Origin: Candidatus Parcubacteria bacterium
Lineage (GTDB): Bacteria; Patescibacteriota; Minisyncoccia; Phycocordibacterales; Zambryskibacteraceae
Length of the DNA: 50,897 bases
NCBI GenBank assembly: GCA_019661865.1
Contig: JAIFWJ010000002.1
Coordinates: forward strand, 1-50,897
Direction of reading: 5' to 3'
Below the pieces are notes generated by a model. That model saw only the letters and a program-made list of their open reading frames with translations. It was not told the origin of the DNA and searched no databases. Position 1 is the stretch's first letter, and every line of letters begins with the position of its first letter. Shown here piece after piece: positions 15,675 through 50,448 of the stretch. The position numbers were made by a program, and so were the translations under genes.

Positions 15675-15768
15675 GTCGCACAACATTATAGCATTTGCAT
15701 TTTAGACCTCTCGGGAATAAGGTGAGGAGAGAGATCCTGGACCAGTTCTATTCCACTCGTGAGGAACT

Positions 15769-24242: not shown

Positions 24243-25028
24243 ATGAAAGCGAAAAAATCTCTAGGCCAGCATTTCTTGAAATCTGATAAAGCTCTGAAGG
24301 AGATTGTAAATGCGGGAGAGGTAGGGGCAGATGATATTGTCTTAGAAATCGGACCGGGACACGGTGATCTTACCTGGAGACTTATTGTTCTGGCTGCTAA
24401 GGTTATAGCAGTAGAGAAAGATGATAACTTATACGCAGAACTCAAGGAGAAGTTTGCAAAAGAAATTAATGCAGGGAGACTAGATTTAATTCATGGAGAT
24501 ATATTGGATTTCAATCCAGAATTATTAAGATTTTATAAAGACTTAGATTACAAAATTGTCTCTAACATTCCGTACAATATTACTGGTGCTATATTAAAAA
24601 AGTTTTTAACTAGCGAGTATCAGCCGGAGAGTGTGGTGCTCTTAGTCCAGAAGGAGGTGGCAGAAAGAATTGTCGCTCGCGATGATAAAGAAAGCATTCT
24701 CTCACTCTCAATCAAATGCTACGGTACACCGCACTATAAGGGGACCGTTAAGGCAGGATCATTCGCTCCAGCACCTAAGGTAGACTCAGCGGTTTTACTT
24801 GTTGATGATATTTCTAAAGAGTTTTTCATAAACTTTAATGAAGAGAAGTTCTTTAAGCTTCTCCATGAAGGGTTTAAGTCGAAGAGAAAGAAGCTCTTAT
24901 CTAACCTTTCTAACCTATCAGAGAAAAAACGCCTGGAAGAAGTGTTTAAGAAGCTTGGATTAGATCCAAACGTCCGAGCCGAGGATGTACACATAGAAGA
25001 CTGGCAAAAATTGGCACAGAGTATATAG
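24243..25028 (+). CDS. rsmA: 16S rRNA dimethyladenosine transferase
   Basis: KKSLGQHFL, LEIGPG.G.LT, NIPYNIT, QKEVAERI and F.PAPKVDS motifs. Confidence 0.97.
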   Translation: MKAKKSLGQHFLKSDKALKEIVNAGEVGADDIVLEIGPGHGDLTWRLIVLAAKVIAVEKDDNLYAELKEKFAKEINAGRLDLIHGDILDFNPELLRFYKDLDYKIVSNIPYNITGAILKKFLTSEYQPESVVLLVQKEVAERIVARDDKESILSLSIKCYGTPHYKGTVKAGSFAPAPKVDSAVLLVDDISKEFFINFNEEKFFKLLHEGFKSKRKKLLSNLSNLSEKKRLEEVFKKLGLDPNVRAEDVHIEDWQKLAQSI

Positions 25029-25035: not shown

Positions 25036-25398
25036 ATGAAATCAGAACATGTAGTGGCCACCCTGGTCGGGATCCTGGTATTCGTAGGAGTTACTTCCGG
25101 TGTCTATATAACCCTGGTCGGGGCAGAGGATACCCCTCACCTTAAGACCGTTCCTACGACTGTAGAGAACCTCAATGCCTATAGTGCCTCAGTAATGGCC
25201 ATATTTAGTAAGTATAAAGACCTTACCGACGATAATATAAAGAAAGGGGCCTCTTCAGAAGCTTTATCCACCCTTTACCACAGAGCAGCTGTAGAACTCT
25301 TGAATCTTTCTGTACCTACAGACCTCCTAGACACCCATACTCAGTTGGTAGATACCTATCTTAACAACGAACGCCAGCTCAAGGACGCCAAGAAGTAA
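25036..25398 (+). CDS. Hypothetical membrane-anchored protein, short paralog-like partner of the next gene
   Basis: N-terminal TM helix. LLNLSVPTDLLDTHTQLVDTY resembles LKSLPVPLSLASLHLQLVNSY of the next ORF. Confidence 0.7.
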   Translation: MKSEHVVATLVGILVFVGVTSGVYITLVGAEDTPHLKTVPTTVENLNAYSASVMAIFSKYKDLTDDNIKKGASSEALSTLYHRAAVELLNLSVPTDLLDTHTQLVDTYLNNERQLKDAKK

Positions 25399-25477
25399 GA
25401 GAACCAGAGTAAGAACTAAGATTAGAGTGGATTCCGTATACATAGGAGCTTAATTGTCTGTTATACTTTTAGGTAAC

Positions 25478-26248
25478 ATGCGATTTCGCTTGAGTATTGC
25501 TCTTTTAGTATCAGTTGTCCTTATCGGTGGAGCGCTTTTTTACAAATTGAGTGCGTCTCATGGTGAAGCCCAGATTTCTTTTGTACAAGGAGATGAGAAT
25601 AACCTGGCAGATGTCTCTATAAGTCTAGACGGTGACACGGTTACTGATTTATCTGTACCGACCTCTAGCACAAGTACTGACAACCTTTCTACTACTGACC
25701 TTATCGGTCGCTCTCTCTTGTCAGATTATATAAACTTAGCTGCCAACGGAGAGGACACCGAGGACAATGTAAACGCTCTAGCTAATAAGTACGCCGACCA
25801 AGTTCCTACATTAACCATATCTCAAGAGTTAAAAGCCTCAGACGTACAGACTGTCGATGATACCCAGAGTAATTACCAGAAGTATGCAGATGCATTTACT
25901 AAAATCCATAAGACTTACGTAGATTATATAAATAAAACTGGAATCCAGAAGAAAAACATTACCGATCTGGGTCCAGACCTATACTTCGCTGCACGGGCCT
26001 TCAGTATTGCCTACACTCAGGCGGGAGACTCACTTAAGAGTCTTCCGGTGCCACTCTCTCTGGCCTCACTTCACTTACAGCTAGTGAATAGTTATTACTC
26101 GAGCGGAGCAGCCATGCTCGCTATTTCAAAAACTGAGAATGATTCTGCATCGGCCTTCGCCGGACTTGTAACGCTTAGCTCCAATTTGAAAATCGAGGAT
26201 TCTCTTATGGCAGAGATCACAAAGACAATAAATAGTCATGGAGTCTAA
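25478..26248 (+). CDS. Hypothetical membrane-anchored helical protein (start of T4SS-like cluster)
   Basis: ATG 25478 after TGTTATACT, N-terminal TM helix, overlaps the next gene. Confidence 0.78.
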   Translation: MRFRLSIALLVSVVLIGGALFYKLSASHGEAQISFVQGDENNLADVSISLDGDTVTDLSVPTSSTSTDNLSTTDLIGRSLLSDYINLAANGEDTEDNVNALANKYADQVPTLTISQELKASDVQTVDDTQSNYQKYADAFTKIHKTYVDYINKTGIQKKNITDLGPDLYFAARAFSIAYTQAGDSLKSLPVPLSLASLHLQLVNSYYSSGAAMLAISKTENDSASAFAGLVTLSSNLKIEDSLMAEITKTINSHGV

Positions 26249-27980
26249 ACTTAAGAAAAATCTGGTGAGAAAGATTACGACAGTTCTAGTTATTTTTTCT
26301 GTTATAGGTGTAAACTTTTTACCTACGTTTACTCCTAGAGCCAATGCTCAGTTTTCTTCCCTTATAAATAAAGCCCTAGTACAACCCGTAACAGATATTA
26401 AGACCCTTGCTAAATCAATAGCCGATGGCATTGCCATGCACTTGGCACAAAGAATGGTGGATGAAATGGTGAAGTCGACCATTCGTTGGGCTAACACCGG
26501 TTTCGATGGATCTCCAGCATATGTCACAAATCCAGTGCAATATGCAGCAAGCATAGCCAATGGCGTAGCAGGAGATGTCATTAAGGGCACAGATCTTGGC
26601 TTCCTCTGCTCACCCTTCCAAGCCCAAATAAAAATTTCACTTCAGAAATATTATGTTGGAAGTTCGTATCAGCCACAGTGTACTCTTACTCAGATTGGAG
26701 TAAATATAGATAACTTTTACCAGGACTTTAAACAAGGTGGGTGGAATGCTTGGATAGCTATGAGCCAGGATGGAGGAAACCCCTATAGTGCATACATAAA
26801 CGCCCAAGGAGTCTTCGACGATAAGGTGGCTTCAGCTTTAGCAGCTGTGAACCAGAAGCTCGATTGGGCAAGCGGATTTAAGTCTAAGGGAGACTGTATT
26901 GCATATAACCCATCCCAGTCAGACATTGATGATTATGTAAATGGAGGCTTTATAACAGAACATGACACAACACGAAAAATAGACCCGAGTATGCCACCAG
27001 GCGCCTGTATTGAACACGGTCCAGATAAGACTCCTGGAGTTATCATTAAAGATCAGCTAGACAAGGTTCTACCTTCTGGCTTGGATAAGCTCATTACAGT
27101 CCAACACGTCGAGCAGCTCGTTGGTGCCTTCGCTAACGGGCTCCTCACTCGATATGTCTTCGGCCCGAAAGGCCTATTCAGTAAAGACTATGGAGACCAC
27201 TTCGGTGCAAGCAACCAGGCCCCAACAGGTCCGGCAGAACAAGAAGCTACATGTTCTGCCAACAGAGATACTGCCATAACCAATGAGACGGAAGTGACCT
27301 GGTCTGTGACCTCAAGCTTGGGCACACATCTTTCATATACATGGACAGGTGAAGGGCTTGAGAGTGCCACCTCAAGCTCCGCTAAAGTTATCTACACCAC
27401 TCCAGGATCTAAGACTGCATCTGCTACCGTCACAGCAAACCAGGTAGATACCGAAGGAAACATTATAGGCATCTCGGCTGTAAGAACAGTACCCTGTGAA
27501 GGAAACGTGATAGTCACCCAATTTACTCCACTTGCCATGTCATGCTCGGTAAACACTGCCCGTGCCGGAAGAGGAGTGCCGGTAACATGGAAAGCTACTG
27601 TGACCGGAGGATCTGGAGCCTTTACCAAGATCCAGTGGGGAGGAGATGAAACGGATATACCTGGAACACATACATCTGTAGTGCCGCCGATATTCTTATA
27701 CAACCCAAGCTCTGGTATTCCTCCGACTCAGGAGAGAGCATCTGTAAATACGGCAGGCAACACCACCACCCTTACTATCTCTTATGGCCTAGGGCTACAA
27801 TCCATAACCACGATAACTAATAACGGAAGTTCAACAGACATCACACTTAGTAGGCCTTACACCGATAGCGCTCACATACCTGGAGAGAGAGGAGCCAACC
27901 TCACTCTCCTCGATAACGACTCGAGTTTACCAGTGGTTGTGAACCAGGCCTGTACTAATTCAGTGTATATTAGTGATTAA
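26238..27980 (+). CDS. Exported Cys-containing protein with two C-terminal PKD-like repeats
   Basis: Signal ending ANA-Q, 'LCSPF' and 'GGWNAW' motifs, two 'C....VTW...W.G' repeats. Confidence 0.78.
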   Translation: MESKLKKNLVRKITTVLVIFSVIGVNFLPTFTPRANAQFSSLINKALVQPVTDIKTLAKSIADGIAMHLAQRMVDEMVKSTIRWANTGFDGSPAYVTNPVQYAASIANGVAGDVIKGTDLGFLCSPFQAQIKISLQKYYVGSSYQPQCTLTQIGVNIDNFYQDFKQGGWNAWIAMSQDGGNPYSAYINAQGVFDDKVASALAAVNQKLDWASGFKSKGDCIAYNPSQSDIDDYVNGGFITEHDTTRKIDPSMPPGACIEHGPDKTPGVIIKDQLDKVLPSGLDKLITVQHVEQLVGAFANGLLTRYVFGPKGLFSKDYGDHFGASNQAPTGPAEQEATCSANRDTAITNETEVTWSVTSSLGTHLSYTWTGEGLESATSSSAKVIYTTPGSKTASATVTANQVDTEGNIIGISAVRTVPCEGNVIVTQFTPLAMSCSVNTARAGRGVPVTWKATVTGGSGAFTKIQWGGDETDIPGTHTSVVPPIFLYNPSSGIPPTQERASVNTAGNTTTLTISYGLGLQSITTITNNGSSTDITLSRPYTDSAHIPGERGANLTLLDNDSSLPVVVNQACTNSVYISD

Positions 27981-27981
27981 G

Positions 27982-30207
27982 ATGAAGAAAAAACTCCCTT
28001 ACATATTAATCTCAGTACTGGTATTCTCTACAATCTTTCTTGTCCCTCATATTACTCACGCTCAAATAATCTCATCTATTACTGGTGGTGCTGCTAAGTG
28101 GTTACTTGCATTACCAGGAACCATTGCTACCAAGTATTTACTCCCTCTAGTAGGATACCTCACTGCTTTCGCGGGACTGATTCTTAACTATGTTATTTAT
28201 CAGACTGTACTCCACATGTCTGATTTGTTCCCTAACGCTAGCATCATTAATGATACTTGGAATGTTATTCGTGATGTTGCCAATATGTGCTTCATCTTCT
28301 TGCTTCTGTACTCCGCTATTCAAACCATCTTTGGCCAAGGTAAAACCCGAGAGTTAATTGTAAATATTATCATCGCAGCCTTGTTGGTTAACTTCAGTCT
28401 CTTCTTTACTAAAGTTATAGTGGATTCTTCAAACATTTTGGCCATTTCTATCTATAACTCTATTGCTCCAGGTGCTATAAGTACTCCTGACGTAACTAAC
28501 GCGGGGCTCTCGAATTCTGTCATGGCTCCATTACAGTTACAGACTATTTATAAATATACCCAACCACTCGACGGGGTTAAGTTACTTACTATAGGAGTGC
28601 TGGGTTCGATTTTCGCTCTTGTTGCGGCATTCGTATTTTTCGTGGCGGCAATAATGTTCGTGGTGAGATTCGTAGTAATCCTTTTCTTAATGATACTTTC
28701 TCCCGTGTGGATACTTGGAGGCGTGATCCCGGGACTGAAGGGGATACAGAAACAATGGCTGGAGTCACTAGTTGGCCAAGCTGTCTTCGCCCCTATATTT
28801 TTCTTATTGGTCTGGATTGTGCTAAAGATCGGCAATGCTTTATACAAACCGGGAAGCATTGCAGATGCTCTACTGAATACCGCTGCAGCGGGAGCGAACA
28901 ATACTAGCCAGATCAACACTAGTGGTAGCACCATGGGTGTAATCTTCAGCTTCGTCATTATGATAGGAATGCTCATCGCAGCCCTCATCATTTCTAAGAG
29001 CTTCTCCACCCGAGGAGCTAAACAGATTGGACAACTTACCGGCTTTGCCGCAGGTGCAGTCATGGGTGGAGCAGCAAGCCTCGGCAGAAAATCCTTTGGT
29101 GCTGCTGGTTCTAAATTTGCTGATAGTGAAGCCCTGAAGAACCGTGCTCAACAGGGGGGCTTAAGCGGCTTTGCTGCTCGGAGAGCTCTCGACCTTAGCA
29201 GTGCTGCGTCGAAAACAAGCTTCGATCTTCGAGGCGCGGGTGGCCCAGCTAAGGGTCTTGTGGGTATAGCAGGGGGAGGCAAGGCGGGTGGCCAAGGAGG
29301 TTATGCCAAACAAGTTGCTGACGAGACCAAGAGAAAGGAAGAGAAGGTCAAACTGTATACGCAGACGTCAGATATCACTAAGGACAAAGCCAAGCGGGAT
29401 CTAGAAGCGGCTAAGAAGATGGAGTTACAGGATCCGGAAACGCTAACCGCCTGGAAAGCAGAACAAAACAAGAGATCACAAGAAGCTAGAGAGGCAGAAA
29501 GAGAGTTGGCCAACGCCCAAGCACGAGGTGCAGACCCAGATACTATTACAGCATTAAGGAAGAAATCCAATGATGCTAATAATGAAAGACAGAAAATTCA
29601 GACCATTCGAGGATTTAAAGACGCAAGGATTGAAATGGCTCAGAAGCGAGCTGATAAGCTTGAGGGAATAAATAAAAAAGAATCAGACAGTAGAAAAGCT
29701 GACCTTAACAAAGAAGAAGAGGCGAAATTAAAAAATGATCCGGCAATCAAGAGACAGGTGGATCTTAAAAAAGAGATGGAGGATCTTACTAAACAAATCG
29801 CTACTCAGACAGGCACGATTAAAGATGATATGCAGCGTGAACTCGACGCCAAAAGTAAGTTATTTGAAACGGTAGCAAAGGAAGCAGAGGAGAGAAGTAA
29901 GACCATCAAAGCAGAATTCCAAGAAAGAAGAGATCTTATAAGAGAAGAGAAGAGTCTAGGTGAGGAGAGAAAGGAAGCTGCCATAAAGAGCATGCTAAAC
30001 CCGAGCATAATAGACAGTGACAGAATACTCTTTGTTGGCCCGGTTAAAAGATCTAATCTCCAAGCTGCAGCAAACTTAAGAAAAGGTAAGAAATCAATCA
30101 GGGAGCGGGTTGAGGAACTGATGAAAGACAATGAAGATATTCCAAAGAAGGACGAAGAGAGGAAAGAGGGAGGAGAAAAACCTGAAGGTGAGGGCGAAAA
30201 GAAATAA
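27982..30207 (+). CDS. VirB6/TrbL-like polytopic membrane protein with Gly/Ala linker and charged coiled-coil tail
   Basis: W...RD.AN, LLVNFSLFFTK..VD.SN and RFVVILFLMILSP...W motifs, 6-7 TM helices, adjacent to PrgI/VirB4. Confidence 0.72.
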   Translation: MKKKLPYILISVLVFSTIFLVPHITHAQIISSITGGAAKWLLALPGTIATKYLLPLVGYLTAFAGLILNYVIYQTVLHMSDLFPNASIINDTWNVIRDVANMCFIFLLLYSAIQTIFGQGKTRELIVNIIIAALLVNFSLFFTKVIVDSSNILAISIYNSIAPGAISTPDVTNAGLSNSVMAPLQLQTIYKYTQPLDGVKLLTIGVLGSIFALVAAFVFFVAAIMFVVRFVVILFLMILSPVWILGGVIPGLKGIQKQWLESLVGQAVFAPIFFLLVWIVLKIGNALYKPGSIADALLNTAAAGANNTSQINTSGSTMGVIFSFVIMIGMLIAALIISKSFSTRGAKQIGQLTGFAAGAVMGGAASLGRKSFGAAGSKFADSEALKNRAQQGGLSGFAARRALDLSSAASKTSFDLRGAGGPAKGLVGIAGGGKAGGQGGYAKQVADETKRKEEKVKLYTQTSDITKDKAKRDLEAAKKMELQDPETLTAWKAEQNKRSQEAREAERELANAQARGADPDTITALRKKSNDANNERQKIQTIRGFKDARIEMAQKRADKLEGINKKESDSRKADLNKEEEAKLKNDPAIKRQVDLKKEMEDLTKQIATQTGTIKDDMQRELDAKSKLFETVAKEAEERSKTIKAEFQERRDLIREEKSLGEERKEAAIKSMLNPSIIDSDRILFVGPVKRSNLQAAANLRKGKKSIRERVEELMKDNEDIPKKDEERKEGGEKPEGEGEKK

Positions 30208-30209
30208 TT

Positions 30210-30908
30210 ATGAACCCCGAAGAAGTACTTAAACAACAAATAGAATCTGCCCCTCAAGAAATTAAAGAATTTCTTGCTGGAGAAGAGTGGGAACCGGTTA
30301 TTAATAATCTTGCAAACAACTCCGGACTGACAGAGGAACAGAAAACTTCAGTAGAAAATGAAATAATTTTCGTTCTTGTAGGTTTAGACCTAAGGTCAAA
30401 CCTTAAACAAAATCTTCAAAACATCGGCCTCTCAGATACCATAGCTAAGTTCGTAGCTGCACAAATAGATACAAAGATCTTAGAAAGATTTGAAGGAATC
30501 TTACCCACCTCTGAGGAAGCTCCTAGGAAAACGATTTCTTGGCCGGAGGAACCAGATTCACAAACTCATACCGCCCCTCCAGAGAACTTGCCGGTAGTTG
30601 AAGAACATGAGCCCACTCCAATGGTAGTAGAAATTAAGGAGAAACCGCCAGAACCTATAGTTCCAAGAGCAAGTACATATCAAGAGACTATAAATAAGCT
30701 ATTTACCCGCCCTGCCGCTCCTCCTGGAGCTGCCCCTTCCACTCCACCTACAAAAAGTCTAAACCTTATAGACTCAACACCCGAGGTAAAACCAGCGTTT
30801 GAGATTAAGAGCACCCCTCCTACACAGCCAGAGGCTCCGGATCTCGCTTCAGATCCACAAAAAAACTACCCCGGAGATAAGGATCCATATCGCGAACCGC
30901 TAGAGTAG
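30210..30908 (+). CDS. Hypothetical protein: helical N-terminus, Pro-rich linker, C-terminal DPYREP motif
   Basis: 232 aa, tightly packed in the cluster. Confidence 0.78.
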   Translation: MNPEEVLKQQIESAPQEIKEFLAGEEWEPVINNLANNSGLTEEQKTSVENEIIFVLVGLDLRSNLKQNLQNIGLSDTIAKFVAAQIDTKILERFEGILPTSEEAPRKTISWPEEPDSQTHTAPPENLPVVEEHEPTPMVVEIKEKPPEPIVPRASTYQETINKLFTRPAAPPGAAPSTPPTKSLNLIDSTPEVKPAFEIKSTPPTQPEAPDLASDPQKNYPGDKDPYREPLE

Positions 30909-30922
30909 GGTAAAATACTCTC

Positions 30923-31348
30923 ATGCGTTTCCAAGTTCCTCAGTTCATTGAAGTCGAGGACAAGATCTTCGGCCCTCTTACCTTCAAACAGTTCATTTAC
31001 ATCGCTGGTGGGGTAGGAATATGTGTAATTCTATTCACCTTTCTACCGAAATTCTTCGCCCTTTTACTCTCAGCACCAATTGTAGCTCTGGCTGGCTCAC
31101 TGGCATTTTATAAAGTTAACGGCAAACCTTTCGCCTCGCTGCTTGAAGCTTTTTTAAAGTACGAATTTTCAGAGAAGTTATATGTATGGAAGAAGCAAGA
31201 CAAGACACCGGTCCACACCGAGATGAAGAGGGAAGCCAGTGAAGTTTATATCCCTAAGCTCTCTTCCTCCAAGCTCAAGGATCTTTCATGGAGCCTCGAT
31301 GTTCAGGACAATCAGAATCCTGTAACACAGGAAGAAACCAAGATATAA
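30923..31348 (+). CDS. PrgI family (VirB3-like) membrane protein
   Basis: F.VPQFIEVEDKIFGPLTFKQF plus two TM helices. Confidence 0.85.
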   Translation: MRFQVPQFIEVEDKIFGPLTFKQFIYIAGGVGICVILFTFLPKFFALLLSAPIVALAGSLAFYKVNGKPFASLLEAFLKYEFSEKLYVWKKQDKTPVHTEMKREASEVYIPKLSSSKLKDLSWSLDVQDNQNPVTQEETKI

Positions 31349-31357
31349 TTGAGATAA

Positions 31358-31996
31358 ATGGCACCTAGTAAAAGCAGCACCCAGGAGTTTGTACCCATTC
31401 AAGAAGTACGCGACGGCATCTTGGTACTTAAGGATGGCGGCATGCGTGCGGTAGTGCTCGCCTCGTCACTTAACTTTTCTTTAAAATCAGATGATGAGAA
31501 GAACGCAATACTATTCCAGTTTCAAGATTTCCTAAACTCCCTCGATTTCTCCATCGAAATAGTAATTCAGTCTAGGAAACTAGATATCAGACCCTACATC
31601 GCCCTACTCGAAGAACAACATAAGAAGCAACTAAACAGCCTTTTAAAGATCCAAACGGAAGAATATATCGAGTTCGTGAGAAACTTCGCTGAGAATACCA
31701 ATATCATGACTAAGAACTTCTTTATCGTGGTGCCTTATGACCCGGCAATCATAGGCTCTAGCACGGTCTCTGGGATCTCAAGCCTCATAGGCGGTAAGAA
31801 AACTACTCCTGCACAAGCGAGTGAGATGAGTTTCGAGGAAAACCGTACACAGCTTGAGGAAAGAGTGGGGGTGGTAGAACAGGGACTTGTGCGCACCGGT
31901 ATACGAGTAGCAAGGCTTGGTACAGAAGAATTGATCGAGCTCTTCTACAAGGCATTTAACCCCGGAGAAACTGAGAAGCCCCTTAAAGCAGCTTAA
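31358..31996 (+). CDS. TraC/VirB4 N-terminal-like protein
   Basis: LNF.LKS.DE......FQ.FLNSLDF..IQS and KNFFIVVPY motifs; lies between PrgI and the ATPase. Confidence 0.72.
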   Translation: MAPSKSSTQEFVPIQEVRDGILVLKDGGMRAVVLASSLNFSLKSDDEKNAILFQFQDFLNSLDFSIEIVIQSRKLDIRPYIALLEEQHKKQLNSLLKIQTEEYIEFVRNFAENTNIMTKNFFIVVPYDPAIIGSSTVSGISSLIGGKKTTPAQASEMSFEENRTQLEERVGVVEQGLVRTGIRVARLGTEELIELFYKAFNPGETEKPLKAA

Positions 31997-32005
31997 AATA
32001 AAGTT

Positions 32006-33838
32006 ATGGCACTTTTTTCAGGATTATTTAGTAAAGGAGAGGAGAAGAGGAAAGATATTCCTTCCATATTGCCTAAGGAAATTTTCCAAGCCTCGGTACT
32101 CGAGCTTAAAGACATTATTGCTCCTTCTGCGCTTAAAGTAACACCAAAAGAATTAAACCTGGGTGAGAAAATTACTAGATCCTTCTTCGTTATATCGTAT
32201 CCCAGATTCTTAACAGAGAGTTGGTTCTCACCGATTATAAATATGGATAAGGTTTTCGATGTATCCATCTTTATCCATCCGATAGAGACTTCTAAAGTTC
32301 TCCGCCAATTTCAAAAGAAGGTGGCCGAAGTTCAAAGTCAGATCCACACCAGGGAAGAAAGAGGTCTTGTGCGTGACCCCATGCTCGACGTAGCCTACCA
32401 AGACCTCGAAAGCTTACGTGATCAACTCCAACAGGCACAGGAGAAGCTTTATGATGTAGGTCTCTACATAACTATTTATGGAGACAATGAAGAAGGGCTC
32501 GATAAGATCGAATCCGAGATAAAGTCTATTCTCGAAGCCAAGCTTGTATACATAAAGCCAGCACTCTTCCAACAAGAAGAAGGGTACAAGAGCACACTTC
32601 CATTAGGAAATGACCTTCTGGCAGTCCACTCCAAACTTAATTCTTCACCACTTTCATCCCTTTTCCCATTTACATCCTTCGACCTTACCTCAGACAAGGG
32701 CATTCTGTATGGTATTAACCGCCACAACTCCTCCCTTGTCCTCTTCGACCGGTTCTCACTGGAGAACTACAACTCCATCACCTTCGCCAAGTCTGGTGCG
32801 GGTAAGTCATATGCCACTAAGCTTGAGATTCTGCGTACGCTTATGTTCGACACAGAGGTCATATGCATGGATCCAGAAAACGAGTATGAGTACCTCGCTG
32901 AGGCCGTAGGCGGAAGGTATTTTAAAATTTCTCTTAACTCCGAGCACCACATAAATCCTTTTGACCTGCCTCTACCCGGCCCTGACGAGTCGGCTGCCAA
33001 TGTGCTGCGTAGTAACATCATTAACCTAGTGGGACTCTTCAGACTTATGATGGGAGGACTTACAGCAGAGGAAGATGCCATCATAGACCGTGCCATCACC
33101 GAGACTTATGCACTTAAGGATATTACAGCTGATTCTGACTTCAGAAATATAGAACCTCCACTTATGTCTGACTTCGAGCTTGTACTTTCTGGTATGGAAG
33201 GAGGGGACTCCTTAGCCCAAAGACTTACTAAGTACACTAAAGGTACATGGGCCGGATTCATAAACAAACCGACCAATGTAGATATAAATAAGAAGTTCGT
33301 GGTTTTTTCTCTCCGTGATATGGAAGACGAGCTCAAGCCCATCGCCATGTACATTGTCACTCACTACATCTGGAATGCTATTCGTAAGGAACTTAAGAAA
33401 AGACTACTTGTTATCGATGAAGCTTGGTGGATGATGAAGTCTGACGACACCGCCTCCTTCCTTATGGGACTTGTGAAGCGCGGAAGAAAGTACTACTTGG
33501 GCGTGGCTACCATTACCCAAGATGTAGATGACTTCTTGAAGTCTCCCTACGGATTACCTATCATTACTAACTCATCTATCCAGGTACTTCTTAAACAGTC
33601 TCCGACGATTATCGATAAACTCCAAACTACTTTTAATCTTACCGACGAAGAAAAATATTTACTCTTGGAGTCTGATGTAGGAGAGGGGATATTCTTCGCC
33701 GGGCTTAAGCACGTAGCCATTAAGATAATTGCTTCTTACACAGAAGACCAAATTATCACATCCGATCCTTCGCAGGTTCTGGCCATAAAGAAGGCTAGGG
33801 AATTAGAACAACATGGAAACACAAGAGAAGGGCAGTAA
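32006..33838 (+). CDS. VirB4-like T4SS ATPase
   Basis: GILYGIN, Walker A AKSGAGKS, DPENEY, INPFD, Walker B LLVIDEAW and RGRKY...ITQ. Confidence 0.9.
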   Translation: MALFSGLFSKGEEKRKDIPSILPKEIFQASVLELKDIIAPSALKVTPKELNLGEKITRSFFVISYPRFLTESWFSPIINMDKVFDVSIFIHPIETSKVLRQFQKKVAEVQSQIHTREERGLVRDPMLDVAYQDLESLRDQLQQAQEKLYDVGLYITIYGDNEEGLDKIESEIKSILEAKLVYIKPALFQQEEGYKSTLPLGNDLLAVHSKLNSSPLSSLFPFTSFDLTSDKGILYGINRHNSSLVLFDRFSLENYNSITFAKSGAGKSYATKLEILRTLMFDTEVICMDPENEYEYLAEAVGGRYFKISLNSEHHINPFDLPLPGPDESAANVLRSNIINLVGLFRLMMGGLTAEEDAIIDRAITETYALKDITADSDFRNIEPPLMSDFELVLSGMEGGDSLAQRLTKYTKGTWAGFINKPTNVDINKKFVVFSLRDMEDELKPIAMYIVTHYIWNAIRKELKKRLLVIDEAWWMMKSDDTASFLMGLVKRGRKYYLGVATITQDVDDFLKSPYGLPIITNSSIQVLLKQSPTIIDKLQTTFNLTDEEKYLLLESDVGEGIFFAGLKHVAIKIIASYTEDQIITSDPSQVLAIKKARELEQHGNTREGQ

Positions 33839-34130
33839 AATACTTGATGGAGAATGGGAAGTTTTGACCTATGCAGTTATTTTCCTTGATGGAATACAGA
33901 TAGTGTTTGATTTTACCCTCCCTGGACTAAATGAGGTTTTAGATCCGTTTGTGGGTTTAGGGTTAGCAATTTATTTCATTATTAGAGGGGTGAGGATGAC
34001 ACTAGGAAGGGTATTTATGTTAATCGGCTTCGGTATAGGAGAGGAGATTCCCTTCGTTGATGCATTGCCGTTCTGGACTCTTGAAGTTCTAAGGGTTAAG
34101 AGTTGGGATATGCAGGACAAAAATTCTTGA
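33813..34130 (+). CDS. Small hydrophobic membrane protein
   Basis: 105 aa with 'EEIPFVDALPFWT' motif. Overlaps the end of VirB4. Confidence 0.72.
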   Translation: METQEKGSKILDGEWEVLTYAVIFLDGIQIVFDFTLPGLNEVLDPFVGLGLAIYFIIRGVRMTLGRVFMLIGFGIGEEIPFVDALPFWTLEVLRVKSWDMQDKNS

Positions 34131-34150
34131 TCTTCCTATATAATAGATTT

Positions 34151-35176
34151 ATGTATAAATTGTTCTTGGTGTGGACTTTACCTGTGTTTCTCTTCACCTC
34201 TTTTGCCTTCACCCAGACGACTGTTCAGGCTCAAGTAGACATTCCTGAAGTTCCCGATGAACAGATTCCGACTGACATAACTCTGGAACCAATTTCTTTC
34301 CTAATAGTACCTGAGACTCCGGCCCCTGGAGATCTGGTCACAGTAAGCATTGAGTCTACGAACTTGGATTTAGACTCAGCCATTATGCGTTGGACGGTTA
34401 ATGGAGGACTGGTAAAAAGCGGCAAGGGTATCAAGCAGATTAACGTCACGAATGGTGGCTCGGGCTCTCAGACAACCGTAAGTGTAAGTATTTCTTCCGG
34501 CGGAGCCACCATTACCCGGTCAACTACCTTCGGGGCTGGTAATGTAGATCTTCTCTGGCAAGGAGACACCTATGCTCCTCCTTTCTATGCTGGGAGACAC
34601 CTCTGGACTCACGGAAGCCGCCTAACTCTACTCGCTATCCCAGACTCAAGTCTTGGAAGCGCCTCGGCTCTTATATATAGATGGAGCCAGAGCGGCACAA
34701 TTCTTGGAGCTTCCTCTGGTGCAGGGAGGAGTTCTCTTTCTTTCTATGACTCAATCCTATCTTTACCTCAGGATATATCTGTAGATGTAATGACTGACCA
34801 AGACACCGTCGTGGCGACTAAAACCATCCACCTACAACCCACAGATGTCACAACTCTTCTCTACGAGGACAATCCACTTATTGGTCTGCTTTTAAATAAA
34901 GAAGTAGACGGATCATATGGTCTTACTGATAAAGAGGTAACCTTCTCAGCCATGCCTATGTTCTACTCTGTTCAAAATAGAACAGACAAGAGAGTGAGTT
35001 ATACCTGGAGCACCAACAGTGGAGCTGCGAACACCGGCAACCACATAACACTCCGCATTCCAGATAACTCGAGTGGCCAAGCCCAAGTGGGAGTTAACAT
35101 AAATAATTCTGCTAACCTCCTACAAACTGCTTCCAAAAGCTTTTTAGTAAAATTCGGTAACACACCGAGCTTCTGA
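34151..35176 (+). CDS. Exported Ig-like beta-rich protein
   Basis: ATG 34151 lies 6 nt after TATAAT. Signal peptide and repeated 'Y.W' Ig-type motifs. Confidence 0.78.
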   Translation: MYKLFLVWTLPVFLFTSFAFTQTTVQAQVDIPEVPDEQIPTDITLEPISFLIVPETPAPGDLVTVSIESTNLDLDSAIMRWTVNGGLVKSGKGIKQINVTNGGSGSQTTVSVSISSGGATITRSTTFGAGNVDLLWQGDTYAPPFYAGRHLWTHGSRLTLLAIPDSSLGSASALIYRWSQSGTILGASSGAGRSSLSFYDSILSLPQDISVDVMTDQDTVVATKTIHLQPTDVTTLLYEDNPLIGLLLNKEVDGSYGLTDKEVTFSAMPMFYSVQNRTDKRVSYTWSTNSGAANTGNHITLRIPDNSSGQAQVGVNINNSANLLQTASKSFLVKFGNTPSF

Positions 35177-35177
35177 T

Positions 35178-36248
35178 ATGAACAACGTGAAGAAAATCTT
35201 TTTATTAATATTCACACTTGCGACTCTAAGTCCTTTTACTCTTCTTCATGCACAAACCAAAACAGGTTGTCCCGCTGGGCAATACTGTCTTCTCGCGCCT
35301 CTCCCGGTGGGGAATCCTACTGGAGGTAATATAGATCATGTAACAGTAACCGGCGCAGGAGACTATATTGCAAACCTGGTGAAGCTCATCATAGCTATAG
35401 CAGGTGGTCTCGCTGTCTTGCGTATAATCATTGGAGGGTTTCAGTACATCACCTCTGAGGCTTTCAGCAGTAAGTCCGCTGCGAAAGATACTATCCAGAA
35501 CGCTGTCCTGGGATTCCTCCTTGCTGCTGGATCATTCTTAATATTGAATACAATAAACCCGGATTTAACCAACATTAATTTGACACTGGAAAATGTCGGA
35601 TCAACTCAAAAACTCGACACATCCTTCAGTGGCGGGACAGACTCCACAGAACCTGACGGAACAAGTGGTGGTAAAACTGCGGCAGAGGTGGATTGTTTGG
35701 TTGACTGTGTACCAATACCTGACGAGATTCCCCACAAACCTCCAGGCCCAGCTGGCAGCCCATCGGCGGGGTGTCTTACTCCCGGACCGTGTTATGTTTA
35801 TTCAGGCCTTGCGACTAAGTTATCTGCATTAAATGAGGCCCTCCAACACAACCCTTATAATTTAGACTGGGAGGTTACGGAAATGTTTCCGCCTGTAGCT
35901 AGTCATGATAGTGATTGCCACAAACCAAACAATGGAAATACGGGAAAATGCGTTGACGCAACCCTTAGAAGTCCCACAACTCCAGAGAACACTGTAAAGT
36001 TTTTCATAGCCATAAATAAATTTGTCAGCCCAAGTTTCCAATGGGAGGAGCCGGACAATGCTTCAAGAGACGCCCGCAGACTTGCTCTTAAACAATACAT
36101 CCAGTCCCGCCCTCCATCGGACTTCAACATAACTGCGTCTCAGGTTCCTCAATTCATAACTGATATAATTTGCAAAGTTAAGACTGTCGCTCACGCAACA
36201 GGTGAGCATGTTCACATTAACTGGGCTGGTCAAGCACCATCATGTTAA
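35178..36248 (+). CDS. TrbC/VirB2-like pilin fused to a Cys-rich putative zinc peptidase domain
   Basis: Two-TM pilin signature AVLRIIIGGFQYITS...AKDTIQNAVLG...ILNTINPDL. C-terminal H..CH...G.CVD...EHVH. Confidence 0.7.
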   Translation: MNNVKKIFLLIFTLATLSPFTLLHAQTKTGCPAGQYCLLAPLPVGNPTGGNIDHVTVTGAGDYIANLVKLIIAIAGGLAVLRIIIGGFQYITSEAFSSKSAAKDTIQNAVLGFLLAAGSFLILNTINPDLTNINLTLENVGSTQKLDTSFSGGTDSTEPDGTSGGKTAAEVDCLVDCVPIPDEIPHKPPGPAGSPSAGCLTPGPCYVYSGLATKLSALNEALQHNPYNLDWEVTEMFPPVASHDSDCHKPNNGNTGKCVDATLRSPTTPENTVKFFIAINKFVSPSFQWEEPDNASRDARRLALKQYIQSRPPSDFNITASQVPQFITDIICKVKTVAHATGEHVHINWAGQAPSC

Positions 36249-37477
36249 AAAAGATTCTTTTAATACTAATTGTTCTAGTTATCCTCGGCGGTGGTTGGTA
36301 TTACTACTCACACAGGAGCACTAATCCACTCGATGGGGGAACTATGGGGACTGACAACCCGTTTGGTAATGCTCCGGGTGGAAACTCTGGTGGAAGTAAC
36401 AGCGGTTCAAACTCCGGCCCAGGTACTGGCTCTGCATCCTCAGGGTCTACAAGCACTGGAGGCACAACGGCAAATGTAGCCCGACTCTTCAAGATCTCTT
36501 CTGACCCTGTGTCAGGCGCAGTCTTCATCACTAGGAATAAGTCTCAATATATACGTTATGTAGACCGAGCTACGGGTCACATATATGATGTGAATCCACT
36601 AAATCTCGAGAAAGTTTCTGCTACCAACAATACCCTTCCAAGAATTTATGACGCTTTATGGAAATCAGATGGAACAAGTGTTATTTTCAGAACTCTAGAG
36701 AGTGGTAGTGACACCGCGGACAACACCTTCATCACTCTTATAGCTTCCAAGTCGACTTCTACAGAACCTCTTTATACTGTTACTTCCACTTCAATGCGCG
36801 GCAATGTGGCTGACATGAAAGTAGGGCCAGGGAATAGTCTGGCTTATGTATTAAGCGATACCGGAAGTGTGGTTGTTTCAAACATCGATGGTACGAAGCC
36901 TACTAGCATTTATTCTTCTCCGTTTACTCAGTGGCGCCTTAACTGGTCTGACGCAGCACATGTGACGCTTACTACTGCCGCTAGTGCATTTGTCGATGGA
37001 TATTCATACAACATAAACATAAGTACAGGAGGAAGAACCAAACTTCTCGGCCCGCTCCAAGGCCTCACTACTCTTATGAGCCCAGACAACCTACGGGTTG
37101 CCTACTCATACAACGACGTAAACGGTATGAAATCATACATAGAAACTATTTCATCGAAATCTTCCGAGGAGTTGGTACCCAACACTCTTGTAGAGAAGTG
37201 CGCCTGGGATATAAAAAATAAAAATGTTATTTACTGCGGAGTGCCAAGCACTGGAGTAGTAGCAGGGGAACCAGATAAGTGGTACCAAGGGATAACACAT
37301 TACTCGGATAGAATTTGGAAATATGATACTACAAATCAGTATGCAGAACTTCTTACTGATCCGAAAAAAAGCTTCAACGTCGATCTAGACGTCATGAAAC
37401 CTAAGATATCCCCTGATGGAAAGTACATTGTGTTTATAAACAGAAGTGACTTATCACTCTGGGCACTTTCACTTTAA
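36242..37477 (+). CDS. Membrane-anchored beta-propeller (TolB/WD40-like) protein
   Basis: N-terminal TM helix, Gly/Ser linker, and WKSDG, SPDN and SPDGKYIVF blade motifs. Confidence 0.75.
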   Translation: MLKKILLILIVLVILGGGWYYYSHRSTNPLDGGTMGTDNPFGNAPGGNSGGSNSGSNSGPGTGSASSGSTSTGGTTANVARLFKISSDPVSGAVFITRNKSQYIRYVDRATGHIYDVNPLNLEKVSATNNTLPRIYDALWKSDGTSVIFRTLESGSDTADNTFITLIASKSTSTEPLYTVTSTSMRGNVADMKVGPGNSLAYVLSDTGSVVVSNIDGTKPTSIYSSPFTQWRLNWSDAAHVTLTTAASAFVDGYSYNINISTGGRTKLLGPLQGLTTLMSPDNLRVAYSYNDVNGMKSYIETISSKSSEELVPNTLVEKCAWDIKNKNVIYCGVPSTGVVAGEPDKWYQGITHYSDRIWKYDTTNQYAELLTDPKKSFNVDLDVMKPKISPDGKYIVFINRSDLSLWALSL

Positions 37478-37479: not shown

Positions 37480-38181
37480 CTAGGCTGTTTTCAATTTTCT
37501 TCTTACGAAGATCTCTTGAGCGATGGTGAATAAGTTTGTGGTAAACCAATACAAGGCGAGAACTCCAGAAACTTTATAAGCAATTAGGAACACTAGGACA
37601 GGAAAGACGTATTTCATCTGCTTCTGCATGTTAGCTGCCAAGTCATTGCCGCTACTTTGGGTATTCTGTGAACCTGCCAATCGAATCTGAAAGTAGGTAG
37701 CTAAGGATGCTAGCACTGCAAGGATTACACTTTTCTCTGTAAGATTCAGTCCGAGGAACTGAGTGGAGATATGCGCCGGAGCATGAACAAACGGATAGAG
37801 TATCTGAATATCAACATTTGGAAACCCCGCATGTGTAAAGATTCTATAGAGAGCAAGGATTATGGGAAGCTGGATAAAAAGTAGAAAGAAACTTGAAAAT
37901 GGATTAACTCCTGCTTCTCTATAGAGCTCTAGAGTTTTTTTAGCCTGTTCTTCTGTATTGTTTTTGTATTTTTCTTTTATCTCATTTAACTTCGGGGTAA
38001 TACTTTGCATCTTCACCTGAGTGACAACCGCCTTTTTAGAAATGGGAAAGAGAATGAGCCGCACCAAGATGGTAACAATGACAACGGCAATTCCTGCATC
38101 AGAAAACGGAACCACTGACAGAAGAAAGATCAGAACATTGTAGAGTGGATTGAATATAAGAACGTGATAGATCCAAGTCAT
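37480..38181 (-). CDS. yidC: YidC/Oxa1 membrane protein insertase
   Basis: TILVRLILFP, GVNPFSS, IQLPI and LALYW motifs; rpmH-rnpA-yidC synteny. Confidence 0.95.
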   Translation of the reverse strand: MTWIYHVLIFNPLYNVLIFLLSVVPFSDAGIAVVIVTILVRLILFPISKKAVVTQVKMQSITPKLNEIKEKYKNNTEEQAKKTLELYREAGVNPFSSFFLLFIQLPIILALYRIFTHAGFPNVDIQILYPFVHAPAHISTQFLGLNLTEKSVILAVLASLATYFQIRLAGSQNTQSSGNDLAANMQKQMKYVFPVLVFLIAYKVSGVLALYWFTTNLFTIAQEIFVRRKLKTA

Positions 38182-38188: not shown

Positions 38189-38500
38189 TTATATCAAAAG
38201 GTCCCTAAGAATTGCCTCCAGACTCTTGCCCCGGAGCTTCTCAGCCCCTGGTCTGGCAGTAAGAAGATAAAGCCCCGGCTTTAACTTAGAGAAAATAGGT
38301 CCAATAGCAGAGTAAACCCTACGCCTGACAGTATTTCGCACTACAGCGCTCTTAGAGACCTTCTTCGACACCGAGACACCCACCCGCACAACCTCAGACT
38401 TACCAGTCTTTAGCAAAAAAGCACCAGAATTAGCCATTTTTTGGCTTTTTTCTAGCTTACTAAACAGAGCTCGCGAGAGCCTCTTGGCTTTAGGGAGCAT
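38189..38500 (-). CDS. rnpA: Ribonuclease P protein component
   Basis: MLPKAKRL and RVGVSVSKKVSKSAVVRNTVRRR motifs. Confidence 0.95.
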   Translation of the reverse strand: MLPKAKRLSRALFSKLEKSQKMANSGAFLLKTGKSEVVRVGVSVSKKVSKSAVVRNTVRRRVYSAIGPIFSKLKPGLYLLTARPGAEKLRGKSLEAILRDLLI

Positions 38501-38634
38501 TATACAGCTAGGCGCTTGCGGCCCTTGTGTCGGCGAGATTTCAAAACTCGTCTACCTCCGCTGGTTTTAGATCTCTTCCTGAATCCATGGACTCGGGCGC
38601 GCTTGCGTTTCTTCGGTTGGTATGTCGTCGACAT
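38500..38634 (-). CDS. rpmH: 50S ribosomal protein L34
   Basis: Hand translation [44 protein letters not shown]; below the ORF-track cutoff. Confidence 0.96.
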
Positions 38635-38725
38635 GATTTAACAAGTTATGAACACATTATAAACACTTTTCAGCCTTAGAACAAGACTTCCTACCTGAAG
38701 GAGAAAAGTTATACTGTTGTACAAC

Positions 38726-40287: not shown

Positions 40288-41400
40288 ATGAAAATAGAAT
40301 CTATTAGAGAAACACTTGTGGACGCAGTCTCTCGGGCGGAGAAGGTGTCAGGAAGAAACACAACCTTACCTGTGCTTGCTGGCATCTTACTTTCAACAGA
40401 CAAAAATCAACTTATTCTAAAGGCCACTAATTTAGATTTGGGAATTACAATTAAAGTGCCCGTTAAGGTTTCTCTAGAAGGAAAGGTGGTTGTACCGGCC
40501 CAAACTCTTAATCAGTTTCTAAACTCTATATCGAAAGAAAAATCTATCAGTCTCGAAAGTGTGAACCAGACTTTAAAGATAGTAACCTCTGGAAGTAGGG
40601 CCACGTTTAAAACTCTTCCTACAGAGGACTTTCCCATCATTCCAGAGCTAAGTGATGACCTGGCCTTCACTATGCCCACACGGGACTTTATAGGCGGTCT
40701 GAAGGCTGTTTCCTTTGCCGCTGCTCAAGGAAGTATGAAGCCAGAACTTTCCTCGGTTTTAGTTTCCTACCAGGGAGATGAATTGGTGTTTGCTGCTACG
40801 GATTCGTTTAGGCTGGCAGAAAAGAGAATTAAGGTAAAAAAGATTCCCCATTTTAATCAACTTCTCATTCCGGCTAAAAACGCTTCAGATGTGGTTAGGC
40901 TTTTCGATGGAATATCAGACGATCTGTCCGTTACCTTAGGAGATAATCAAATTGCCTTGAGGTCGGGAAATGTCTGCTTAACTTCAAGGGTTATTGACGG
41001 AACGTTCCCGGACTATAAACAGATAATTAAACAAATTTTTCTTGAAGAAAACATTTCTAGGGTCGTAGTTCTAAAACAAGATTTAACTAATGCTCTTAAA
41101 ACAGCTGTCGTCTTTTCAGATAATTTTAATCAGCTTATTCTAAAGGTAGTTCCTAAAGAAAAAGTCTTTCAGATAGAGTCTAAGAACAAGGATGTGGGAG
41201 AGAATGAGCAGTCTGTGCCAGCTGTGATAGAGGGTAAGGAGGTGACGATGAGTGTTAATAGCAGATATTTCACTGACAGTTTCCAGTCCATAGGGGTAGA
41301 TAGCATGAGTTTAAGTTTTAGTGGTGAGGGCCGGCCGATCTTGATACAAGGAGTGGGTGATAAAAGCTTTTTGTACATTGTGATGCCAATGAATAGATAA
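40288..41400 (+). CDS. dnaN: DNA polymerase III beta clamp
   Basis: ATNLD, ATDSFRLAE, SRVIDGTFPDY and IVMPM motifs. Confidence 0.97.
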   Translation: MKIESIRETLVDAVSRAEKVSGRNTTLPVLAGILLSTDKNQLILKATNLDLGITIKVPVKVSLEGKVVVPAQTLNQFLNSISKEKSISLESVNQTLKIVTSGSRATFKTLPTEDFPIIPELSDDLAFTMPTRDFIGGLKAVSFAAAQGSMKPELSSVLVSYQGDELVFAATDSFRLAEKRIKVKKIPHFNQLLIPAKNASDVVRLFDGISDDLSVTLGDNQIALRSGNVCLTSRVIDGTFPDYKQIIKQIFLEENISRVVVLKQDLTNALKTAVVFSDNFNQLILKVVPKEKVFQIESKNKDVGENEQSVPAVIEGKEVTMSVNSRYFTDSFQSIGVDSMSLSFSGEGRPILIQGVGDKSFLYIVMPMNR

Positions 41401-50371: not shown

Positions 50372-50448
50372 GGGGTAATTGTAACTTAGAGCCAATGTAA
50401 GTTAAATGCCTAATTCTCGTTCATATACCCAGACTAAAAGGAGGTTGT

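Follow-up and report, generated by a model that had tools for sequence, protein, structure and literature searches.

What is a cluster of type IV secretion system (T4SS)-like genes doing beside dnaA and dnaN on the chromosome of a Patescibacterium: is it a conjugative element, or a resident machine with another task? The cluster in question lies in positions 1–50,897 of contig JAIFWJ010000002.1 from a Candidatus Parcubacteria bacterium, and this whole stretch of 50.9 kb is referred to as the window. Our results from this study make it likely that the cluster is a chromosomal, vertically inherited T4SS of the Patescibacteria clade, which derives from the conjugation machinery of single-membrane bacteria, is devoid of DNA-processing genes and serves contact-dependent exchange with a host. 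Its gene content, gene order and cross-species conservation and the lack of mobility genes in its neighborhood were observed directly. Patescibacteria make up a large share of the uncultivated bacteria and are host-attached, and the T4SS is among the few machines shown to be essential in them, in one cultivated class. Systems of this kind are already in print (2023–2025), and the window is one more instance, whose outer parts are uncharacterized. It adds no new kind of system and provides a clean and well-conserved example from the largest class (Paceibacteria/Parcubacteria).

The cluster consists of eleven plus-strand open reading frames (ORFs) from 25454 (or 25478) to 37477, between rsmA and the convergent yidC. 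Adjoining ORFs overlap by 28 nt or less or are separated by gaps of 14 nt or less. The first gene starts with a TTG at 25454, with AGGAG 5 nt upstream; 25478 is an in-frame ATG, which had been used in an earlier reading made from the letters alone (hereafter the sequence-only reading). That reading had described eleven co-oriented, tightly packed genes between rsmA and yidC, and the ORF listing bore this out. The cluster genes (g1–g11) and an additional small gene upstream of them (g0) are as follows:

g0, 25036–25398, plus strand: 120 amino acid residues (aa), with an N-terminal hydrophobic segment, between rsmA and g1
g1, 25454–26248, plus strand: 264 aa, bitopic or exported protein of no known family
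g2, 26238–27980, plus strand: 580 aa, exported protein (signal-like N-terminus) of no known family
g3, 27973–30207, plus strand: 744 aa, extended VirB6-like polytopic membrane protein
g4, 30210–30908, plus strand: 232 aa, no hydrophobic segment, C-terminal DPYREP tail (ending in DPYREPLE)
g5, 30923–31348, plus strand: 141 aa, membrane protein of the PrgI/VirB3 family
g6, 31358–31996, plus strand: 212 aa, TrsD-like, detached VirB4 N-terminal domain
g7, 32006–33838, plus strand: 610 aa, VirB4 ATPase body
g8, 33813–34130, plus strand: 105 aa, small membrane protein of no known family
g9, 34103–35176, plus strand: 357 aa, exported, beta-rich protein, probably with Ig-like repeats
g10, 35178–36248, plus strand: 356 aa, VirB2-like pilin with a C-terminal domain carrying a putative zinc site
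g11, 36242–37477, plus strand: 411 aa, membrane-anchored, probable TolB-like beta-propeller

Four of the eleven proteins were confidently named by family scans (PrgI, the VirB4 body, the TrsD-like protein and the pilin), and six (g1, g2, g4, g8, g9 and g11) were without a known family. The labels that the sequence-only reading had given to the parts all hold, as judged from the family scans, hydropathy and the DPYREPLE end of g4; its "TraC-like" g6 is more exactly a detached N-terminal domain of VirB4. Because g0 is a partial paralog of g1, the cassette arguably comprises twelve genes here. The C-terminal half of g1 was similar to g0 (BLASTP E 3e-5), and the iterated profile of g0 recovered the same 57 ORFs as that of g1.

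The window VirB4 body was 87–92% identical to the best 120 listed relatives, and 8000 candidates were scored, all at E ≤ 0.001. Those relatives that carried an organism name came from Parcubacteria, Zambryskibacteria, Minisyncoccota and similar groups; the others were unnamed, labeled "[bacterium]" or given generic function names. For comparison of the loci, the best 80 of 561 confirmed loci were used (one genome per species; VirB4 74–90% identical; L001–L080), in which the cassette was recovered by tblastn and iterated profiles. All 80 loci were titled as metagenome-assembled genomes of Patescibacteria type, "bacterium" or "uncultured bacterium". In all of the 44 loci that spanned both rsmA and yidC, the cassette lay between these two genes. 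Among these 44 loci, g2, g3 and virB4 were present in all, g1, prgI and g11 in 43, g4 and trsD in 42, g9 and the pilin gene in 41 and g8 in 30. Hence six further gene families were defined that travel with the core in 30–44 of 44 loci. The exact order of the eleven genes was kept in 20 of the 44 loci, and the sole rearrangement was that of L001. Moreover, yidC followed the cluster in 51/51 and dnaA in 49/51 of the loci with at least 8.5 kb downstream, and rsmA preceded it in 50/52. The flanking genes in the window are:

pcrA/uvrD, 22274–24232: upstream of rsmA
rsmA, 24243–25028: directly on the upstream side of the cluster
yidC, 37480–38181, minus strand: downstream of the cluster, convergent
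rnpA, 38189–38500, minus strand: downstream
dnaA, 38717–40075: downstream
dnaN, 40288–41400: downstream

The pairwise distances of VirB4 were correlated with those of DnaA+DnaN+YidC among 47 taxa (r = 0.85), and none of 999 permutations in a Mantel test gave a value as high. The two trees had 24 of 44 splits in common, compared with 0.2 after label shuffling, and 20 of the 25 well-supported VirB4 splits recurred in the housekeeping tree. As these markers are linked to the cluster, the tree test shows co-inheritance of the region. The mean p-distances were 0.20 for VirB4 and 0.48 for DnaA+DnaN+YidC, VirB4 evolving about half as fast. The sequence-only reading had named a patchy distribution and an incongruent VirB4 phylogeny as findings that would speak against it. 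The distribution was not patchy among the spanning loci, and VirB4 was congruent with the linked housekeeping genes. Given the fixed slot in the relatives and the co-inheritance with housekeeping genes, an integrative and conjugative element (ICE) is very unlikely; together with the lack of linked mobility genes, these results support the earlier preference for a resident machine.

The median identities to the window proteins were 81% for VirB4, 63% for TrsD, 61% for DnaA, 52% for PrgI, 39% for the pilin and 26–31% for g1–g4, g9 and g11. Among the 80 species, VirB4 was more conserved than DnaA, DnaN, YidC, PcrA and RsmA (median 81% versus 39–61%), an unusual finding for a gene that descends from mobile elements. 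The gradient fits a conserved cytoplasmic engine with host-specific, fast-changing outer parts.

g5 was identified as PrgI (Pfam E 1.7e-13; 51.4 bits versus a cut-off of 27). g7 matched the CD1110 family of VirB4 proteins in NCBIfam with 372.6 bits (cut-off 325) and was 26% identical over 550 residues to residues 220–772 of PrgJ of pCF10 (E 1e-39; hhalign probability 99.6%). In an alignment of 38 sequences, the residues of its P-loop and Walker B motif were invariant (A261, G264, G266, K267 and S268 as well as D471 and E472). The NCBIfam matches of g6 were to VirB4_plasma (E 3.7e-12, model positions 101–233), CD1110 (E 5.8e-5, 2–118) and TrsD (E 1.4e-4), all below the cut-offs, and neither BLASTP nor hhalign found similarity between g6 and PrgJ of pCF10. 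The trsD and virB4 genes were adjacent and separate ORFs in 72 of the 72 loci with both, and were never fused. g3 possesses seven hydrophobic segments followed by a long C-terminal tail that is first Gly-rich and then Lys/Glu-rich. Its VirB6 signals were faint: NCBIfam CD3337/EF1877 at E 1.2e-3 (far below the cut-off), Pfam TrbL/VirB6 in 6 of 61 orthologs, and PrgH of pCF10 at an hhalign probability of 21% (E 1e-3); its profile gave nothing usable in the Protein Data Bank (PDB). This 21% match between g3 and PrgH was also the only one when the profiles of eight cluster families were compared with 13 pCF10 proteins. All-against-all comparison of the profiles of ten cluster families gave only a match in the signal-peptide region, at 57%.

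Similar to the gene content, the setting of the cluster agrees with what has been described for Patescibacteria. VirB4 was reported in 2,417 of 3,035 Patescibacteria genomes, where it forms a monophyletic clade nested in MPF_FATA, with genes for TrsD, PrgI/VirB3, VirB6 and VirB2-like proteins near virB4 (Quinonero-Coronel et al., 2025, Microb Genom, PMC12102498). In the same report, relaxases occurred in only 103 Patescibacteria genomes, dnaA, dnaN, rnpA, ksgA and rpmH were frequent neighbors of virB4 in Paceibacteria and Microgenomatia, inheritance was mostly within classes, and the system was concluded to have been co-opted for a role other than conjugation. The window agrees with it in VirB4 with a separate TrsD, PrgI, a protein of VirB6-like topology with faint sequence signals, a VirB2-like pilin, the chromosomal site at dnaA/dnaN/rnpA/ksgA and the lack of a relaxase or coupling protein beside virB4; nothing essential differs. 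The statement of the sequence-only reading that T4SS-like genes are reported in Patescibacteria is thus correct to the point that the same relaxase-free, dnaA-proximal system is described there.

The MPF_FATA systems, such as prgD–pcfG of pCF10 and trs of pGO1/pSK41, have in common with the window the VirB4 body, PrgI, the TrsD-type split of VirB4 (pGO1 subclass) and, weakly, a PrgH-like VirB6. Several parts of the pCF10 type, however, were not detected in the window: the relaxase, the type IV coupling protein (T4CP) PcfC, a PrgK-type hydrolase, the VirB8-like PrgL/PrgD and the adhesins PrgB/PrgC. Conversely, the window encodes a VirB2-like pilin, which a FEMS review describes as lacking in Gram-positive systems. 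In contrast to these plasmid-borne systems, the window cluster has a fixed position on the chromosome and is inherited vertically.

In Southlakia epibionticum, most T4SS genes were essential in co-culture by transposon sequencing (Tn-seq; epibiotic growth), and the coupling and relaxase proteins were described as lacking (Wang et al., 2023, Cell, PMC10633639). Its genes SEML1_0006–0019 include VirB4, a gene in the position of TrsD, PrgI, VirB6-like proteins and T4SS pilins, as does the window. The accessory genes of the two were compared by gene descriptions. As described, Southlakia has six small unfused pilins (104–185 aa by gene length), whereas the window has one fused pilin; it also has separate phage-tail-lysozyme/glucosaminidase and NTF2-like (VirB8-like) proteins, neither of which was detectable in the window cluster, two very large VirB6-like proteins and a PrgI of 300 aa, compared with 141 aa in the window. 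A 2025 review describes the T4SSs of Patescibacteria as unique among monoderms for their essentiality and pilins. T4SS-pilin, Ig-like, PKD and PG-binding proteins were among the most highly expressed unknown genes in methanogen co-cultures of Paceibacterales (Kuroda et al., 2024); these data, which concern other genes than those of the window, would fit an active surface apparatus.

A total of 52 window ORFs were put through the Pfam scan (18 + 34), and no relaxase, VirD4/TraG-type coupling protein or VirB11 was found among them, as the sequence-only reading had said. Its statement that the window has no integrase does not stand: a XerC/D-like tyrosine recombinase of 197 aa (14932–15525, minus strand; Phage_integrase E 5.2e-43) is encoded 10 kb from the cluster. 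Nine ORFs, most with housekeeping Pfam families, lie between the two. The recombinase ORF corresponds to the catalytic half (model positions 95–289), and a segment matching the N-terminal part can be read in a different frame further upstream (together 14932–15900, minus strand); because the N-terminal part is in the other frame, the gene is either frameshifted or affected by an assembly error. The earlier statements that there are no att repeats and no compositional break were both upheld. The sole repeat bracketing the cluster was an 18-nt pair of 83% identity, of a kind often due to chance and not a convincing att site; no tRNA gene adjoins the cluster, the Rfam scan of the window gave four tRNAs only, and no tandem repeats were found in the window. 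The GC content was 0.439 for the cluster and 0.441 for the other genes, and the GC content at third codon positions (GC3) was 0.417 and 0.431, respectively (Mann-Whitney p = 0.47 and 0.28). The codon-usage distance of the cluster was inside that of random gene splits (12.8% of which reached the observed value), and its 4-mer correlation of 0.92 was within the range of other blocks.

The 44 slots contained 70 additional ORFs of at least 100 aa, among which no relaxase, coupling protein or integrase was found. They encode opposite-strand PG_binding_1/TIG proteins, Jag/KhpB beside yidC, small 23S-rRNA-IVP/bAvd-like proteins, two IS200-type transposases and a few others. The IS200-type (Y1) transposase genes lie inside or beside the cluster at L002:12684-13352, L002:1586-2254 and L013:13116-13778, with the gene order intact. 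The 23S-rRNA-IVP/bAvd-like four-helix proteins are encoded between T4SS genes in six relatives (L002:8497-8874, L004:8917-9312, L013:8521-8886, L033:7842-8213 and 8792-9178, L036:8542-8904 and L051:9619-9990). Two inserted genes were considered as cargo candidates and rejected. The Fic/DOC-family protein at L044:3590-4678, between virB4 and the g8-type gene, combines a degenerate motif with an N-terminus of wHTH type, and the "PT-TG" protein of L051 resembles the membrane proteins of g8 type, with a tail of charged residues.

Residues 61–118 of g10 matched T4SS_pilin (E 3.2e-5; 24.4 bits, just under the cut-off of 26.6), and 45 of 48 g10 orthologs did so at E ≤ 0.01. g10 is composed of a conserved pilin part (residues ~1–135) and a C-terminal domain of ~190 aa, here called the head. 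Similarly, 59 of 66 pilin ORFs had C-terminal extensions of 60–290 aa, which fell into 30 groups that were not linked by BLAST. Two groups of heads, with 11 and 10 members, had an invariant His/Asp/His site, and the other heads were rich in Lys and Glu or in Cys. A second pilin gene was present in L038 and in L051.

The profile of the window head recovered 2484 cluster representatives at E ≤ 0.001. In an alignment of 150 sequences of this head type (the window protein and 149 of the 150 best listed relatives), H243, D260 and H344 were invariant and H248, C173, C177 and E235 near-invariant; the pilin domain was also present in 135 of the 150. The motif of the window head is H248-x11-D260, followed by H344-x-H346, and at the motif level the order His/Asp/His is that of the ligands of LAS/M15/hedgehog proteins. 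In hedgehog and M15 enzymes, zinc is bound by these His/Asp/His residues. The order and spacing of the invariant His...Gly..Asp and of the C-terminal His-x-His are those of the LAS/hedgehog-DD-peptidase (M15) zinc domains, to which the head has, however, no significant sequence similarity. The best PDB matches of the head profile were the N-domains of Sonic, Indian and Desert hedgehog, aligned on ...TE...H..G..VD at a marginal E of 0.034, and Peptidase_M15_4 was matched by 1 of 20 head-domain members (E 8.9e-4). Comparison of the head with DdpX (hhalign 0.8–2.5%) and MepK (0.1–0.2%) of Escherichia coli revealed no significant similarity, none of the 150 full-length members had a Pfam match for the head at E ≤ 0.01, none of 20 head-domain members matched PHROGs, and a PDB search with the full-length profile of 150 sequences gave no match. 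Since the matches to M15, DdpX and MepK were single or non-significant and the full-length profile was empty, the head is not called a member of the LAS/hedgehog family; it carries a putative zinc site, possibly of the LAS/hedgehog type. Heads with the zinc site occurred in 19 of 64 taxa, with at least 5 state changes on the VirB4 tree, compared to 16.7 in shuffles.

g1 has an N-terminal hydrophobic segment and homologs found by iterated profile only; it had no match in Pfam, NCBIfam or the PDB and no similarity to the Prg proteins of pCF10. In many relatives, the slot of g0 is taken by an opposite-strand PG_binding_1/TIG gene and a partner of ~120–140 aa (for instance L017:2410-3474 and 2021-2401). 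g2 consists of a conserved Cys-containing N-domain (residues ~40–320), with W84, G88, F89, C124, C148, C220 and C257 near-invariant, and a variable beta-rich C-terminal module. Its 119 homologs were unnamed or "hypothetical" and came from Parcubacteria-type sources, and a few contained Pfam domains (SdrD_B, cellulase or TIG) or bore a PKD name. The g2 profile had no match in the PDB, and a stored g2 homolog in the protein Atlas was linked only to unnamed Patescibacteria clusters, with scores of 0.82.

In g4, an N-domain of helical appearance is followed by a linker rich in Pro (21%) and by the DPYREP tail, of which D225, Y227 and E229 were invariant in 33 sequences. The pattern D[PLT]Y[RH]E occurred in 62 of 67 g4 orthologs, in 60 of them 2–4 residues from the C-terminus, and no further family of genes at the loci contained DPYRE. 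The tail looks like a docking tail, as far as its sequence suggests. g4 had no Pfam or PDB match, a search with the single sequence gave 3 proteins only, and none of the papers listed in a literature search for the tail peptide had a bearing on it. g8 has a hydrophobic segment and a conserved E.IP....LP.WT motif in which P86 is invariant; it was found in 63 of the 80 loci by iterated profile, and its profile had no match in the PDB. g9 has a signal-like N-terminus and three W-containing repeats, with W97, W194 and W302 invariant, and its best PDB profile match was the Ig-like phage protein Hoc, which was weak (E 0.0036). g11 has an N-terminal hydrophobic segment and matched TolB structures by profile, also weakly (E 3.6e-4); among its 57 orthologs, two had Pfam DPPIV_N and two PD40. 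The six unnamed conserved families, including the DPYREP protein, were not found described in the literature searched, the supplementary tables of PMC12102498 aside, and the same was true for pilins fused to such C-terminal modules.

How these parts would work together can be outlined from what is established for VirB3, VirB4 and VirB6 in T4SSs elsewhere. PrgI would anchor the split VirB4, that is the TrsD-like part and the ATPase body, at the membrane, and the extended VirB6-like protein would form the membrane channel. By analogy with its role in pilus biogenesis, ATP hydrolysis by VirB4 would drive the extraction and assembly of the VirB2-like pilin. We infer that g1, g2, g8, g9 and g11 together with the C-terminal module of the pilin make up the wall-spanning, host-facing part, that the zinc-site module may cut peptidoglycan in this lineage and that the cytoplasmic g4 docks on the motor by its DPYREP tail. 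The machine may then move protein or other macromolecules in or out at host contact, rather than conjugate, as suggested by work in another class. The pilin module and the DPYREP protein are candidate determinants of host specificity and of the recruitment of substrates in a system without a coupling protein.

A more specific version of this scheme, "one pilin, many heads", combines a zinc-hydrolase head on the pilin with a DPYREP protein that takes the place of the coupling protein on the split VirB4, and is offered tentatively as less probable than the general one. A swappable head would be exchanged between species on a single VirB2-like pilin, being a hedgehog/DD-peptidase-like zinc hydrolase here. 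Each subunit of the surface structure would therefore present an adhesin or enzyme that is adapted to the envelope of the host. Neither a swappable pilin C-terminal module with an invariant His/Asp/His site nor the near-invariant DPYREP tail was found in print, the supplementary tables of PMC12102498 aside.

Several points weigh against a host-directed T4SS that is free of DNA-processing genes and inherited vertically. A function in host attachment, feeding or effector delivery would be transferred from Tn-seq in another class, Saccharimonadia, the cluster of which differs. The absence of relaxase and VirD4 covers the 50.9-kb window, part of a contig of 125 kb or more, and not the rest of the genome, and most genomes of Patescibacteria are reported to have VirD4-like genes, usually located far away from virB4 (Quinonero-Coronel et al., 2025). 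In L077, an ORF of 923 aa (425-3196, minus strand) directly upstream of prgI weakly matched TraG-D_C, T4SS-DNA_transf and DUF87; it was the only coupling-protein-like neighbor in the 80 loci (among 18 further unlabeled ORFs), and the contig ends there. No VirB8-like or VirB1-like part was detected by profile comparison with pCF10 proteins, the VirB6 and pilin calls for the window's own proteins fall below the curated cut-offs, and the zinc-peptidase reading of the pilin head is made from a motif and marginal matches. Moreover, 2 well-supported VirB4 splits conflict strongly with the housekeeping tree, and the congruence found is with linked markers, not with a ribosomal or species tree. Finally, DnaA boxes were neither enriched nor clustered at dnaA (16 matches versus 11.7 expected).

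Two other functions for a resident system have to be weighed. The cluster could be a T4SS for import of DNA or nucleotides, like archaeal Ced or ComB of Helicobacter, which feeds host DNA to a nucleotide-auxotrophic cell. It has been proposed that DNA or other macromolecules are taken up from hosts (Quinonero-Coronel et al., 2025), genes for export-type coupling proteins and relaxases are missing from the cluster, and DNA-repair and recombination genes are nearby: pcrA, a gene for a ComM-like Mg-chelatase family ATPase (18389–19912) and ruvC/ruvB (46–48 kb). These neighbors, however, are ordinary housekeeping genes that are found in the same order in relatives. Moreover, the CedB model was matched with only 35.5 bits (cut-off 700), the Pfam/NCBIfam scans of the window revealed neither CedA nor parts specific to ComB, and a comEC deletion in Southlakia is described to abolish competence and to leave viability intact (FEMS review). 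DNA import is regarded as an unlikely function.

With about the same low probability, the cluster would only build a surface organelle, in which VirB4 assembles a display of pilin fusions (adhesin or wall hydrolase) and no substrate passes through a channel. This explanation is favored by the presence of one pilin gene only, whose large C-terminal module varies among species, and by the lack of a coupling protein in the window; VirB4 is also reported to drive pilus biogenesis (Quinonero-Coronel et al., 2025), and T4SS pilins were highly expressed in Paceibacterales enrichments (Kuroda et al., 2024). However, the conserved VirB6-like channel with its long cytoplasmic tail and the conserved DPYREP protein are not obviously needed for pilus assembly, and a pilin with ~190 extra residues may be unable to polymerize. 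It is highly improbable that the cluster is a resident or decaying ICE with its relaxase, coupling protein and integrase located beyond the window or recently lost. The parts do have their origin in conjugative MPF_FATA systems, a gene for a tyrosine recombinase is found 10 kb upstream, a T4CP-like neighbor occurs in one relative and the L002 and L013 clusters have IS200-like transposases, but the rsmA–yidC slot is the same in 44/44 loci, the trees are congruent, composition and codon usage are native, the 18-nt pair of 83% identity is the only repeat and no tRNA is adjacent, the recombinase is XerC/D-like and seemingly frameshifted, and VirB4 is more conserved than DnaA.

The preferred reading of a resident, host-directed T4SS is accompanied by expression signals that are those of the genome at large. 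The sequence-only reading had proposed a core-type leaderless promoter at prgI, and indeed a TAAAAT, without a good -35 element, ends 6 nt before the ATG. A -10-like hexamer 4–9 nt before the start was present in 43 of 72 prgI orthologs (mean of shuffles 11.1, maximum 21) and 27 of 58 trsD orthologs (mean 9.9, maximum 17), counts that overstate independence because orthologs are related sequences. The counts at the starts of virB4 (15/65) and dnaN (13/51) were not above those of shuffles. Only 2 of the 72 prgI orthologs had a Shine-Dalgarno (SD)-like motif. Of 50 genes in the window, 16 had a -10-like hexamer 4–9 nt before the start, yidC, nusA and tig among them, and only 6 had an SD-like motif, which suggests that leaderless transcripts may be widespread in this genome. 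Since the arrangement is also found at yidC, nusA and tig, the cluster uses the ordinary, probably leaderless, signals of the genome. A sigma-70 scan of the window gave fewer sites than shuffles (18 versus 22.6), and a literature search for leaderless transcription in Patescibacteria found nothing relevant. In some of the related loci, for instance L008, L066, L005 and L004, near-identical stretches ending in TATAAT are repeated upstream of prgI, trsD and virB4.

The cluster had also been called origin-proximal. Its adjacency to dnaA and dnaN is clear, while an enrichment of DnaA boxes there was not observed; because the boxes are not clustered at this site, "origin-proximal" should be taken to mean next to dnaA/dnaN. 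With an origin at dnaA, transcription of the cluster would run head-on to replication, and with one near 15.6 kb, the two would be co-directional. Gene orientation flips at ~15.6 kb (15525–15769), and a further intergenic gap is found at 38500–38717. Two perfect DnaA boxes (3374 and 3794) flank a 527-nt non-coding gap (3364–3890), in which no credible Rfam match was found.

A LysM + Peptidase_M23 protein is encoded 4 kb upstream of the cluster (20299–21351, minus strand), and some VirB1-like proteins of Patescibacteria are reported to carry LysM/Peptidase_M23-type domains (Quinonero-Coronel et al., 2025). At 202–2514 (minus strand), three ORFs have N-terminal hydrophobic segments, one of them with a weak Ig_3 match, and may belong to type IV pilus loci. 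Similarly, a T2SSE-family ATPase with an MshEN domain, which is PilB-like, is encoded at the window end (48692–50395, minus strand) and may belong to a type IV pilus locus.

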